Shown: in pieces, positions 32,590-64,000 of the stretch | How the letters are laid out: every line of letters starts with the position of its first letter | Numbering within the stretch: the first letter of the stretch is position 1 | Assembly (NCBI RefSeq): GCF_988243305.1 | Contig: NZ_OZ547136.1 | Length of the DNA stretch: 64,000 nucleotides | Strand: one strand, 5' to 3' | Notes under the pieces: model-generated | Database searches by the model: none | What the model was told of the DNA's origin: nothing | What the model saw: only the letters and a program-made list of their open reading frames with translations | Translations under genes and position numbers: made by a program

Positions 32590-32795
32590 TGAGCTTAAGA
32601 TAGCTATAACATTGAATAATAAAAATATATTTAAATATATCGTATAAATAGCCCCCAATATAGCCCCCAAGGTGTAGTTGTTATACATGAAGGTATATTG
32701 AACTCTGTTGAAATATTATCTGTAATGGTTCAGTGAATGCAGCATACCTACCTGTCTTGTTCCGGGACGAGACACAATATCTGTGATATATAAGT

Positions 32796-33644
32796 CTATA
32801 CTGAAGAAGAGACTTTTCCCGCATAATGTTTCGCAATAATATCATTTAGCCGATCAACCAGTTCTGGTTTCCTGAACGTGATATGTGCGGAGCCCTTCTT
32901 AAAGTATCTGATGCTGAACATCTCATCTTCATAGCACGCTTTGCCCTGAACGGAGCGGATGTGATCATCCAGACGAATAGTGATGTTTTCCCGGTTGTCG
33001 GGGATTGGTTTGCCGCTGAACAGGTGCAGCATTCTTTCCTGGTCGGCAAGTCTATCTGCCTGTTGCCCGGTGATAAGATGCAATCCCCATCGGTCCCATC
33101 TCACCAGATTGTTGACGATAATTTTATTGCCAAATTTACAGGGGGAGTTGGTTTTGTAATTCCAGCTCAGCCCTCTGAAGAGGTTGATCACACCTCGCTC
33201 AAACACTTCATCCTTATTCTGGTGCAGTTGTTCAAATGTGCTCAGGATATTCGCCTCGCTGATTTCCGGAAAATTATCGTACTCCAGTGACCGGTACCAT
33301 GTATCACGGGCCTGTGCATCCATTAATGACAGCATCCCTGAACGTTGCATCAGGTCACGCCAGATTTCGCGGTCAAGGTTGCGGGTGATAGCTTTCATTG
33401 CGGTTTCCGTTTTATCCATCAGCCAGCAGCCGCAGCGAAAATCCTGTTTCATGGCCCAGTCCCGGGCGGTTTTACCTCCAATACTTTCTGTCAGTACTGA
33501 GATTTCTGCCAGTTGCCGGATAAGTGTGTCGATTTGCAGCAGCGCACTCTTTCGCACAGCTAGAATGTGGCTGACTGAGGTGGAGCAGATAACGTCCGTA
33601 TGCCCGTTGACCACTTCCGGACGGGAGGCTGTGATTTCAGACAT
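32796..33644 (-). CDS. DUF4942-type protein found at the distal end of CP4-like islands
   Basis: 282-aa ORF; family call is from memory of island-end genes. Confidence 0.65.
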   Translation of the reverse strand: MSEITASRPEVVNGHTDVICSTSVSHILAVRKSALLQIDTLIRQLAEISVLTESIGGKTARDWAMKQDFRCGCWLMDKTETAMKAITRNLDREIWRDLMQRSGMLSLMDAQARDTWYRSLEYDNFPEISEANILSTFEQLHQNKDEVFERGVINLFRGLSWNYKTNSPCKFGNKIIVNNLVRWDRWGLHLITGQQADRLADQERMLHLFSGKPIPDNRENITIRLDDHIRSVQGKACYEDEMFSIRYFKKGSAHITFRKPELVDRLNDIIAKHYAGKVSSSV

Positions 33645-33728
33645 AATCGTTTTTCCTTTTTACTGATAAACGAAAACGCCAGCCGTATTCAGGCTGGCGT
33701 CAGTGGAATGAAGTCTGGTGAGTAAGAC

Positions 33729-33926
33729 TCACCGGTTCTGTTGCAGAAACTGCACCTGGCGCAGGGTACGGATATCTTCCCTGGCCTGTTCAATGCAGGG
33801 CAGCAGTGCTGCTGAATCCGTGTTATCCTCATCGTTGTCGAAGATAATCCCTGATTCGCAGTCAATATTGTCCTGCAGCCACGCAATCAGAATATCCAGC
33901 GCCGTTTCTGTGGTTAATAATTTCAT
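33729..33926 (-). CDS. Small hypothetical protein (65 aa)
   Basis: ATG 33926 (MKLLTTETALDILIAWLQDN...) within ORF 33729..34163; followed by a hairpin plus T-tract on the minus strand. Confidence 0.45.
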   Translation of the reverse strand: MKLLTTETALDILIAWLQDNIDCESGIIFDNDEDNTDSAALLPCIEQAREDIRTLRQVQFLQQNR

Positions 33927-33945
33927 CCAGTGTCTTTTGTCCTGA

Positions 33946-61303: not shown

Positions 61304-62239
61304 ATGGGGTTTATAATGAATAAAGATAGATCTTTAAATGAAATGATGTTAAGCTTGTTTAATAAATCAACTATTGTTGACTTGTCAAGTGAGACAATAT
61401 CTGAGAGTAAATCTCTTTCAGGCCGTATTTATCAGGATCCTGAACATAACGGGGAATTTGAACTTGATCGTGTATTGACAGATATTTATGCTCCTCAGTT
61501 AATTATTTTTTTACCAGATAAACCAAATGGAACAGGAATATTGATTATTCCCGGGGGGGGCTACCAGGCTGTTATGTTAGATAAGGAAGGTACAGCTCTT
61601 GCTCCAGAGTTTTTATCTCAGGGCTATACATTATTTGTTCTTAGTTACAGATTACCATCGCCAGTTGAGGGAGAAAATATAAACAAAACTTTTATTGATG
61701 CAATATCTGCAATGCTTTATATTCGTAAGAATGCTGATAAATGGCATCTACAGCGTCATCGTATTGGTGTATTAGGATTTTCTGCTGGGGGGCATATCGC
61801 CTCAACGTTTGTGAATCAGATTTGTGATTTCAAACGTTCTTCTGACAGTAAAGAACAAGAGATTTTCGCTATTCCCGATTTTGTCGGGTTAATTTATCCT
61901 GTAATATCAATGAAAGATGATGTGACACATCCAGGCTCCAGGAAGCAATTACTGGGGGACAATAGTACCTCAGAAAATATAATACAATATAGTGCGGATC
62001 TTAATGTCACATCATGTTTTCCTCCTGTGTTTTTACTCCATTGTTGTGATGATGATCTTGTGTCAATTGAAAACAGTCTGCTCATGTACCGTGGCCTAAT
62101 AGAGAAAGGTGTTTCTGCTGAAATGCATCTCTATGAGAAAGGAGGGCATGGTTTTAGTATTCAGTGGGCCACAGATCTTCCTGTTGGAGGATGGATAAAA
62201 CTGTTTATGGACTGGATGTATTCTCATGGATTTAAATAA
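61304..62239 (+). CDS. Alpha/beta-hydrolase esterase (copy 2, paralogue of 58567..59376)
   Basis: LIIPGGGY and GFSAGGH motifs shared with copy 1; alternative start 61316. Confidence 0.7.
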   Translation: MGFIMNKDRSLNEMMLSLFNKSTIVDLSSETISESKSLSGRIYQDPEHNGEFELDRVLTDIYAPQLIIFLPDKPNGTGILIIPGGGYQAVMLDKEGTALAPEFLSQGYTLFVLSYRLPSPVEGENINKTFIDAISAMLYIRKNADKWHLQRHRIGVLGFSAGGHIASTFVNQICDFKRSSDSKEQEIFAIPDFVGLIYPVISMKDDVTHPGSRKQLLGDNSTSENIIQYSADLNVTSCFPPVFLLHCCDDDLVSIENSLLMYRGLIEKGVSAEMHLYEKGGHGFSIQWATDLPVGGWIKLFMDWMYSHGFK

Positions 62240-62274
62240 TATTTATGGTGACTACCTGGTGAAGCGTCGAGTAA

Positions 62275-63009
62275 CTATGATGCTTCAATTCGTTTATAAA
62301 GGTGATTATACATTAGCTGTTCAGCTTTATCACAATCATGCTCTTTTATGGCCGTAAGTATTTCAATATGCTGCTGATGGGTTTTTTTGTTATTTTCATA
62401 TGTCATTTTATTCTTTTCCAGAGGTTTGGCCATTATCAGCCATTCAGAAAATGCTGAGTGTATTGTTTTTAATACTTTATTGTCAGGTATATCAGCAAGT
62501 ATACTATGAAATTCAATATCATATTGAGCATACACTTCGGGGGTTCTCAGTGAGTTATGATGGATACTGAGCACCTTCTCAAGCCTGTGAATATCCTCAG
62601 GCGTTGCATTTTTTGCTGCATATCTTACAAGGTTGGTTTCAAAAAAGATGCGTAGTCTTTCAAAATCCTTGATGCCATCAGCTGTAGATAAAAAATCTTT
62701 AACAATGCCTGATAACCCATTAATGATGGTTTCTGGTGATGGACGGCAGACACTGGCTTTTTCTCCCTTGTTATACCGGATTAGCCCTTTATGTCTGAGA
62801 GATGATAAAGCCTCTCTGACAGATGGTCTTCCAACGCCAAAGAATGCCATAAGTTCACGTTCAGAAGGCAGGTATTCACCTTCCCTTATCTCCTCCTGGC
62901 GGATCATTCTTTCAAGCTCTTCGGCAACGATTTCTGAAAGTTTTTTTGTAACAATGGGCTTTCTGGTCGTTGTTAGCCCGGGTAACACGGTTTTTTTGTT
63001 GTCGGACAT
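62275..63009 (-). CDS. GntR/FadR-family transcriptional regulator (NanR-like)
   Basis: 244 aa; N-terminal winged HTH (ERELMAFFGVGRPSVREAL) and FadR-type C domain. Confidence 0.8.
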   Translation of the reverse strand: MSDNKKTVLPGLTTTRKPIVTKKLSEIVAEELERMIRQEEIREGEYLPSERELMAFFGVGRPSVREALSSLRHKGLIRYNKGEKASVCRPSPETIINGLSGIVKDFLSTADGIKDFERLRIFFETNLVRYAAKNATPEDIHRLEKVLSIHHNSLRTPEVYAQYDIEFHSILADIPDNKVLKTIHSAFSEWLIMAKPLEKNKMTYENNKKTHQQHIEILTAIKEHDCDKAEQLMYNHLYKRIEAS

Positions 63010-63105
63010 ATATTGATTTATATGGATTAGAGCAAATGAGTTTTTAATTTAACACTTTCTTTTAATAATGAAAATATTTAATTAAATCTATTATGTAAAG
63101 GGGGA

Positions 63106-64000
63106 ATGATGTATCATCATGATTTTAATGAAAAAATAGGTTTCTGGTATGTGATAGCCCTCGCAGGACAGTCTAATGGTATGGCCTACGGTGAAGGTAT
63201 TCCCCTGCCAGATACACTCGACAAACCCGAGTCCCGTGTAAAACAACTGGCTCGTCGAAAAACAATCACACCAGGAGGAAAAGAGTGTAAATTCAATGAG
63301 ATTATTCCGGCAGATCACTGCCTGCATGATGTTCAGGATATGAGTGGATATCACCATCCGGCTGCTGATTTGCATAAAGGGGAATATGGTTGTGTCGGAC
63401 AGGGATTGCATATAGCTAAAAAGTTACTGCCATACATACCTGAGCAAGCAGGGATATTACTGGTTCCTTGTTGCAGAGGAGGTGCCGCCTTTACTGTTGG
63501 AGCTGAAGGTATGTATGTACCTGATACAGGGGCAACAGCTGATGCAATGCGGTGGGGCACCGGAACAGCACTCTATGAGGACTTAGTAGCCCGGGTTAAG
63601 GTAGCTCTGGAATATAACAGAAAGAATAAACTGCTATCTGTCTGCTGGATGCAGGGGGAGTTTGATCTTATGTCACCAGATTATGAAAAGCATCCTGACT
63701 TGTTTTATCAGATGGTAACTTCTTTCAGGTCTGAGTTATCTGAATACTCATCTCAGTGTGTTGGTAATTCGTCAGAAAGAGTTCCATGGTTGTGTGGTGA
63801 TACAACCTGGTACTGGAAGGAATCTTATCAAAAAGAATATGATTTTATATATGGACATTACAGACAACGGACTGATGATGAAATACATTTTCTCAGCTTT
63901 CAGGATAGTAACCGACATGAATTAACTAATGAGCCAGAAGAAGATGCCGATGATTTATCTGTCGGGTATCTGGGGTCATCATGGAGGACAGAATTAAGCT
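63106..64000 (+). CDS. SASA-family (DUF303) sialate O-acetylesterase NanS/YjhS-like, 3' end outside window
   Basis: Open frame from ATG 63106 to window end; GQSNGMAYGEG catalytic-Ser motif. Confidence 0.7.
   Translation, partial: MMYHHDFNEKIGFWYVIALAGQSNGMAYGEGIPLPDTLDKPESRVKQLARRKTITPGGKECKFNEIIPADHCLHDVQDMSGYHHPAADLHKGEYGCVGQGLHIAKKLLPYIPEQAGILLVPCCRGGAAFTVGAEGMYVPDTGATADAMRWGTGTALYEDLVARVKVALEYNRKNKLLSVCWMQGEFDLMSPDYEKHPDLFYQMVTSFRSELSEYSSQCVGNSSERVPWLCGDTTWYWKESYQKEYDFIYGHYRQRTDDEIHFLSFQDSNRHELTNEPEEDADDLSVGYLGSSWRTELS

Follow-up and report, generated by a model that had tools for sequence, protein, structure and literature searches.

What is a block of foreign DNA that has the gene order of a CP4-57-type cryptic prophage and shows neither an integrase nor a neighbouring tRNA gene? 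The question is raised by a 64,000-nucleotide stretch of contig NZ_OZ547136.1 (assembly GCF_988243305.1), referred to here as the window. The window is Escherichia coli chromosome, 99.2% identical to CE0007a over 9411-18810 (the stretch from miaA on), and its chromosomal part runs from the glyV-X-Y tRNA genes (1926-2345) through to ulaABCD. Island DNA follows from 32590 to 64000 (31.4 kb) and reaches the window end. A sequence-only reading had proposed a CP4-prophage-like island whose integrase lies beyond the window or has been lost, the latter leaving it immobile. The evidence assembled here makes it very probable that 32590-64000 is instead the integrase-distal part of a large P4-integrase-type genomic (pathogenicity-type) island, site-specifically inserted in ulaE. 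In the proposed mechanism, a P4-type tyrosine integrase of 393 residues would insert the island at a 14-bp core within ulaE codons 14-18. The integrase gene would lie at the far end of the island, together with another copy of the core and the rest of ulaE, and is expected 7-100 kb beyond position 64000, where the island end should read AATAAATC-CTCCCCGCCGGGGA-GTGCTGGCTGGAACGCC and be followed by ulaF.

The visible junction can be placed exactly. In the window, ulaD ends at 32524 and the ulaE ATG lies at 32535. The sequence then follows the intact, unoccupied ulaE of J53 through 32589, and unrelated sequence starts at 32590, so that the first base of foreign DNA is fixed by alignment. When the window was aligned with J53 ulaE and with both island junctions of CE0007a (alignment A1), a 14-bp attachment (att) core, CTCCCCGCCGGGGA, was found to be common to the empty site, the window junction (32576-32589, codons 14-18) and both CE0007a junctions. 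In intact ulaE this core sits within a 7-1-7 dyad, CTCCCCG-C-CGGGGAG, and the left flank, core and right flank together give intact ulaE exactly. What remains of the gene here is a 5' fragment of codons 1-18 (32535-32589, plus strand), severed from the rest and continuing into island DNA as a chimeric open reading frame (ORF) of 37 residues, which is also called on an identical draft contig. Excision from a carrier strain would be predicted to leave an attB that spans ATGTTGTCC...CTCCCCGCCGGGGAGTGCTGG and to give an attP that contains AATAAATCCTCCCCGCCGGGGATGAGCTTAAG. Direct repeats at the island ends, which the sequence-only reading had suggested seeking, are thus present as a core at both ends in CE0007a. 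The window holds one copy, even when one mismatch is allowed, and the second end of its island must therefore lie outside it. The absence of a tRNA target was borne out as well: ARAGORN and Rfam detect no tRNA or tmRNA gene in 32590-64000. The only tRNA genes of the window, glyV-X-Y, were considered as the true target and rejected, as they are 30 kb away with normal core genes between.

The missing integrase is accounted for by the layout of relatives. A tblastn search of the window with the ula-type integrase gave a best E-value of 4.3, and none is annotated in a near-identical stretch of BR1220, in agreement with the sequence-only reading. In CE0007a, the 66-kb island encodes a 393-residue tyrosine recombinase at the end opposite DUF4942, starting about 175 bp from the ulaE remainder. 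The same layout recurs in the 38-kb island of VTB96816v and the 41-kb papGII island of CU37RT-2. Judged by its sequence, the enzyme is a P4-type (IntA-like) tyrosine integrase. It combines PF13356 (Arm-DNA-bind_3), PF22022 (Phage_int_M) and PF00589 (Phage_integrase), with E-values of 4e-26, 4e-25 and 9e-19, respectively, and is 35% identical over its full length to CP4-57 IntA (E 5e-76), the conserved catalytic motifs TAVRTGE, HGFRHT, LAHVD and GTYNH being aligned. Its identity to the integrase of the BR1220 selC island is 52%, and its score against NCBIfam PRK09692 (254 bits) is below the 434-bit cutoff. An integrase next to alpA, as had been anticipated from CP4 elements, is not the arrangement of this island type. 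DUF4942 lies distal to the integrase in CE0007a, VTB96816v, CU37RT-2 and the BR1220 selC island alike, and tens of kb of cargo separate int from alpA in the relatives (at least 25 kb from the alpA region in ula relatives). With 31.4 kb visible and no complete example below 38 kb, a window that lacks the integrase is what one would expect.

How regularly the two ends go together was surveyed across 5426 complete E. coli genomes, an occupancy survey that had been proposed earlier. The ula region around the junction is present in 5423 of them and the site is occupied in 63-81. The window-type left junction, represented by a 313-bp query (32500-32812: ula flank, core and arm), was found in 63 genomes and the int-ulaE junction in 81. 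With 60 matches listed for each junction, 57 accessions are common to the two lists, and in these the left junction is 93-95% identical to the query. Among these listed matches, every genome with both junctions (57/57) carries the integrase by the ulaE remainder, at a distance of 38-131 kb (median 62 kb), and in 55 of the 57 the two junctions are collinear. A synthetic attP query, made from the int arm, core and DUF4942 arm, matched 64 genomes, each in exactly two places; a joined attP was found in none of the 5426. Of the two fates envisaged for the integrase, a position beyond the window is hence favoured by the relatives (57/57 listed, 64/64 by the attP query) and loss is not. The tyrosine recombinase and matching att repeat that would have spoken for a standard element do exist in these relatives, with ulaE rather than a tRNA gene as the target.

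Two kinds of variant were noted along the way. In NZ_AP045179.1 and NZ_CP095505.1 the two ula junctions, separated by 113 and 131 kb, are on different strands, which suggests an inversion that has a breakpoint within the island. A divergent ula left arm, 80.8% identical, is present in CFSAN061770 (NZ_CP023142.1, 4749028-4749336) and also in NZ_CP063492.1 and NZ_CP156706.1. The CFSAN061770 island extends for more than 50 kb without its far end being reached and carries other cargo (an S6 peptidase and a YadA-like adhesin). The partners of this divergent left arm are probably the 17 int-ulaE junction matches whose identity to the integrase region of CE0007a is below 95%.

If the integrase is or was recently functional, one would look for identical islands in dissimilar chromosomes, and this is the pattern seen. 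Draft contigs encoding a DUF4942 protein identical to that of the window number 22, and the ten that were examined all have it in the ula context. In nine of the ten, the island end matches the window with 0-2 mismatches over 2.7-6.0 kb, while the adjoining 9.8 kb of ula flank differs by 1.7-3.0%, with mismatches beginning 67-81 bp from the core in most of them. An identical island end thus sits in the ulaE of at least five flank haplotypes. The tenth contig (GCA_052135155.1) matches the window at 100% identity along 7.9 kb, to the left and to the right of the junction, and belongs to the window's own lineage. The integrase side behaves in the same way: ten loci agree without a mismatch between the core and a point about 230 bp beyond int. 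In 7 of the 9 loci set against the reference, the ulaE-ulaF flank accumulates 67-110 mismatches over 3.7 kb, the nearest of them only 16 bp away from the core. The assembly collection indexes this exact integrase protein in 2917 blocks, and among the matches listed 10 of 10 adjoin the truncated ulaE followed by ulaF. Divergence rises abruptly at the att core, on the left as on the right, which is the mark of a recent site-specific integration into differing backgrounds and rules out co-transfer of long homologous flanks. The identity pattern, read from sequence comparison, indicates recent site-specific spread rather than an immobile relic, and the immobility proposed for the island is not supported, given 100% identical ends in differing flanks and relatives that retain an integrase.

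The same observations bear on whether an integrase was involved at all. The island does contain IS1 and IS66 copies, and DNA of this kind could have arrived by an insertion sequence (IS)-mediated or illegitimate event, or by homologous flank recombination from another strain. However, no IS end coincides with the junction, both ends are bounded by one and the same 14-bp core, and 63-81 genomes have the insertion at this position. On either side of the island, flank divergence sets in 16-81 bp from the core in most loci. Insertion without an integrase can be considered practically negligible.

Beyond the core, the visible att end provides a candidate for the sequences that such an integrase would recognise. 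Direct-repeat analysis delimits an island-side att arm (32590-32795) with a pair of ATAGCCCCCAA repeats at 32648-32658 and 32660-32670, 58 bp inside the island (direct repeat D2). The motif TAGCCCCCA occurs three times in the window against 0.41 expected. In CE0007a the repeat pair recurs, as GTAGCCCCCAGAGTAGCCCCCAA, some 20 bp before the start of the integrase gene, and analogous xACCCCCA pairs are present in both arms of the BR1220 selC island; none were found in CP4-57. By analogy, it is plausible that the ATAGCCCCCAA pair represents putative arm-type sites, probably bound by the arm domain of the integrase. Core and arm together make up an intact att end. Candidate arm-type sites in the form of CCCCCA repeat pairs would then be common to ula- and selC-type islands. 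A scan of GTDB species representatives for TAGCCCCCANNNTAGCCCCCA returned 24 matches, near chance level, with none enterobacterial and one adjoining a related integrase, and is uninformative on other genera. That one match is in a metagenome-assembled genome of Flavipsychrobacter sp. (JANINW010000095.1, 9866-10146 of the locus extracted), where an exact TGGGGGCTA-N3-TGGGGGCTA precedes, by 290 bp, a P4-type integrase gene whose product has 31% identity to the ula enzyme; more near-copies of the repeat lie just before the ATG of that gene. It is either a coincidence among 24 chance-level matches or an arm-site motif conserved across phyla.

Turning to the body of the island, Pfam families for the backbone were taken from an identical draft contig (L004) and RefSeq product names from the BR1220 island, which is 98% identical. 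All genes from DUF4942 to alpA are on the minus strand. The last island gene, next to the att arm, is DUF4942 (32796-33644; PF13708 on the exact protein, with the same RefSeq name in relatives). It is followed by a 65-residue ORF (33689-33886), for which no Pfam family is recorded on the identical draft contig and whose counterparts in BR1220 and VTB96816v are named DUF957 by RefSeq, and by DUF5983 (33946-34434; Pfam on the same contig). The next two genes encode a CbtA-family toxin of 109 residues (34479-34808; PF06755) and a CbeA/YeeU antitoxin (34855-35232; PF06154), which by family assignment are a type IV toxin-antitoxin pair. The toxin ends 16 residues before the C-terminus of its 125-residue BR1220 homologue, and the 109-residue product is called on all ten draft contigs with this island end; CbeA is full length. 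Thereafter come DUF987 (35308-35529), a RadC/JAB protein (35598-36074), an antirestriction protein (36090-36563), an 81-residue ORF (36657-36902) and DUF932 (36902-37723). Within this block (35308-37723), PHROG matches are phrog_10132 (anti-restriction) and phrog_12094. A small DUF905 protein and a truncated small ORF (37813-38379) are interrupted by IS1 (38547-39314, minus strand, terminal repeat at 39292-39314). Four of the draft contigs (L004-L007) break at this IS1, with contig ends at 38542-38623.

At the other end of the backbone are a YfjP/YeeP-like GTPase (44027-44962), 49% identical to K-12 YfjP (E 4e-95), and an AlpA-like helix-turn-helix protein (47799-48059), with hypothetical genes between them (44984-47719), including products of 305 (44984-45901) and 205 residues (47102-47719) that have no family matches in PADLOC, NCBIfam or PHROG. 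The AlpA-like protein matches phrog_66 (E 2e-10) and phrog_2790, 'excisionase and transcriptional regulator'. It is 25% identical to K-12 AlpA and its TIGR01764 score is below the cutoff. By analogy with AlpA, it is a candidate excision activator or directionality factor, and would promote excision of the island.

Is the element then a true cryptic prophage of the CP4-57/CP4-44 type, namely a P4-like satellite phage in decay whose integrase end has been lost? The list of backbone genes given by the sequence-only reading and their CP4-57-type order are confirmed by the K-12 annotation, Pfam and the YfjP identity: CP4-57 has the same succession of alpA ... yfjP, yfjQ/DUF932 ... antirestriction, RadC, DUF987, antitoxin and toxin towards its integrase-distal end, and the integrase of the ula family is itself P4-type. 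The DUF4942-to-alpA backbone is a conserved one, common to CP4-57 and to E. coli islands at selC, pheV and pheU. However, CP4-57 is 22 kb long, occupies the tmRNA gene (ssrA) and has int 1.2 kb from alpA, whereas the ula islands are 38-131 kb long and lie in a protein-coding gene, with tens of kb between int and alpA. The island has no tRNA or tmRNA gene as its target, and its visible part contains no genes for phage structure or replication; no homologue of YfjI, the P4-like primase, is annotated in the BR1220 stretch that is 98% identical to the window. The complete relatives have an intact integrase and cargo such as pap, iha and lactate-utilisation genes, the sialic-acid genes of the window adjoin iuc, sat and iha in CFT073 (see below), and the literature treats such elements as pathogenicity islands (PMC7686366). 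A cryptic prophage in the strict sense is therefore very improbable. Nor does the element resemble an integrative and conjugative element, as no relaxase, coupling protein or type IV secretion genes are present in the visible 31 kb or in the annotation of the complete 38-66 kb relatives.

Between IS1 and the GTPase lie three further minus-strand genes, named after their BR1220 counterparts, for a patatin-like phospholipase (39474-40544), an RdcB-family protein (40541-41446) and a dynamin-family, CrfC-like GTPase (41443-43827; NCBIfam CrfC 560 bits, cutoff 1146). The three overlap or abut, are found in many E. coli islands and occupy the place that Ag43 has in others. PADLOC gave weak LeoBC and phospholipase matches for this triad and its neighbours and assigned no known defence system. 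The triad may be a defence or membrane-remodelling module.

Upstream of alpA, the content matches what had been described from the sequence: small ORFs, a YagK-like gene, IS66 copies and a sugar-utilisation locus. The plus-strand genes here, annotated as in BR1220 and CFT073, are an hha fragment (48912-49124), a YagK/YfjJ (inovirus Gp2-like) gene (49721-50326) and a zinc-ribbon ORF (50456-50911); the stretch they span has a PHROG match to phrog_25019. Two IS66-family copies follow on the minus strand (tnpC 51095-52669; truncated tnpC 52630-53730; tnpB 53761-54111; tnpA 54108-54533). They are nested, one copy abutting the truncated tnpC of the other, and an identical arrangement is annotated in BR1220 and CFT073. 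The remainder, from 55195 to the window end at 64000, is a plus-strand cargo for sialic-acid catabolism that is 99.9% identical to CFT073, ATCC 25922 and others. It encodes an N-acetylneuraminate (Neu5Ac) lyase, an N-acetylmannosamine kinase, a major facilitator superfamily transporter, two alpha/beta hydrolases, a KdgM-family porin and a Neu5Ac epimerase, together with NanR, which is on the minus strand. A gene for a sialate O-acetylesterase runs into the window end and is incomplete.

This cargo links the island to others at different sites. BR1220 has an island at selC (tRNA-Sec) that is 98.0% identical to the window over 32812-49124 and 99.4% over 49525-64000. Local divergence reaches 7.6% at 33-34 kb and falls to about 0% at 38-42 and 53-64 kb. 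The alignment is colinear through IS1, which sits at the same position in both, implying that this part of the ula island and the selC island share ancestry after the IS1 insertion. The selC island resembles the ula islands in having its integrase at the end far from DUF4942. It differs in its att site, which is the selC 3' end rather than ulaE coding sequence, in its integrase and in the terminal 220 bp, and this terminal 220 bp is the only ula-specific part of the visible island. Integration at tRNA sites keeps the target gene whole, and an intact tRNA-Sec gene is indeed annotated beside the BR1220 integrase; in contrast, integration at ula truncates its target. The second relative, in CFT073, shares the YagK/zinc-ribbon/nested IS66/sialic-acid module (99.9% identical) and the same type of alpA/GTPase backbone. 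It is at another location and has Ag43 and YfjI in place of the dynamin triad and the 305-residue ORF. There, the sialic-acid locus adjoins the shiF, iuc/iutA, sat and iha genes, a content by which it is presumably PAI-CFT073-pheV (PAI I CFT073; PAI, pathogenicity island). The mosaic cargo would have been exchanged with islands at selC, pheV and pheU by homologous recombination, and as no complete genome has this cargo at the ula end, the island of the window is a new combination of known modules.

Such mosaicism also invites a less favourable interpretation, namely that the island is a remnant or hybrid without its own integrase, in which the ula att end has been joined to a non-cognate end (for instance a selC- or pheV-type integrase and tRNA) or truncated by deletion, and is now immobile. 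An island body 98-99.4% identical to a selC island from 32812 on, with the same IS1 insertion and with no complete genome known to carry it at ula, is what such a fusion could look like. Moreover, ula and selC islands are oppositely oriented on the chromosome, so that a crossover between them would be predicted to give an inversion, and 2 of the 57 listed genomes do have inverted ula junctions. On the other hand, the two ula arms are found together in 64 of 64 genomes, all 57 listed genomes have int, and a 100% identical island end in the ulaE of at least five flank haplotypes needs a ula-specific integrase that worked recently. The mosaic identity profile, for its part, is what ordinary module exchange gives, as judged from the sequences. 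A remnant of this kind is consequently regarded as unlikely.

Several observations nevertheless weigh against the reading of the window as one end of an integrase-bearing ula island. The window stops short of the far end of the island, draft genomes of the same lineage break off 3-6 kb into it, and the ten examined draft contigs with the exact DUF4942 protein all end after 2.7-6.0 kb of island. Among complete RefSeq E. coli genomes, none has this cargo attached to the ula junction, and the only one that covers at least 80% of window positions 31000-55900 is BR1220, with its island at selC. Rearranged configurations of ula islands exist: the two junctions have opposite orientations in 2 of the 57 listed genomes, and three more genomes list the integrase junction without a close (93-95% identical) left arm. 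Neither an attP junction nor a tandem array was found in two metagenome scans and the 5426 genomes, a weak negative for excision. The roles suggested for the arm sites and for AlpA are founded on analogy. The presence of the integrase in this particular genome, and the way in which the island moves between cells, are what we infer rather than observe.

The ula operon itself is not a new target. Biggel et al. 2020 (Nat Commun, PMC7686366) listed it ('ulaE - ulaD') as one of six PAI integration sites, called it novel, described a site-specific integrase of its own and reported the PAIs 6-Pyelo-ula and 67-Pyelo-ula from uropathogenic E. coli. The island described here shares with those PAIs its place on the chromosome, with ulaD to one side and most of ulaE to the other, and is the same kind of island with a site-specific integrase. 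The core and family arm are present at its end, and occupancy of the site is variable. CU37RT-2, which is O16:H6 like the isolates of that study, has the same att ends, integrase and DUF4942 backbone as the ula islands. The cargo differs, as the window has IS1, the patatin/RdcB/dynamin triad and the sialic-acid locus and no pap operon within the visible 31 kb. The position differs as well: the site has been placed 'between ulaE and ulaD' (PMC7686366), whereas the crossover maps here inside ulaE, at codons 14-18. A literature search for further reports of ula islands returned this study alone, apart from an O104:H4 paper that concerns an IS1 deletion in a homologous locus. That ula is a PAI site with its own integrase is thus already known, and the exact 14-bp core inside ulaE is a refinement.

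The refinement has consequences for the host operon. With the core inside the gene rather than in the ulaD-ulaE intergenic region, integration truncates ulaE, and both ulaE and ulaF lose their link to the operon promoter. The remaining ulaE is without its first 13 codons and normal start, the whole island separates it from the ula promoter, and at the int-side junction of CE0007a two in-frame TAA codons directly precede the core. Loss of ulaE function would be expected from this arrangement, and carrier strains may be impaired in anaerobic ascorbate use. The paralogues sgbU and sgbE could compensate. RefSeq annotates the CE0007a remainder (NZ_CP119011.1, 989269-990084; positions 1-85 of the extracted junction) as an intact 271-residue UlaE with an ATC start immediately behind the two TAA codons. 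Intact-UlaE annotations of this type in carriers are probably an artefact that masks the gene disruption.

The insertion interrupts a coding gene, and excision across the core would leave ulaE exactly as it was before, with its reading frame restored (alignment A1). On these grounds the ula islands could be imagined as a reversible switch of anaerobic L-ascorbate catabolism, of the 'active lysogeny' type, in which AlpA-driven excision would turn ulaE and ulaF back on. As a second and smaller idea, the paired TGGGGGCTA-type repeats beside the integrase start could be a conserved arm-site code. Both are speculative and held to be improbable.

Taken together, the apparent anomaly of an island with neither integrase nor tRNA reflects where the window ends and an attachment site that is less familiar but already published, and as such matters little beyond correct annotation. 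For the family as a whole, identical island ends in backgrounds that differ by 1.7-3.0% indicate that ula islands are still moving between E. coli lineages.

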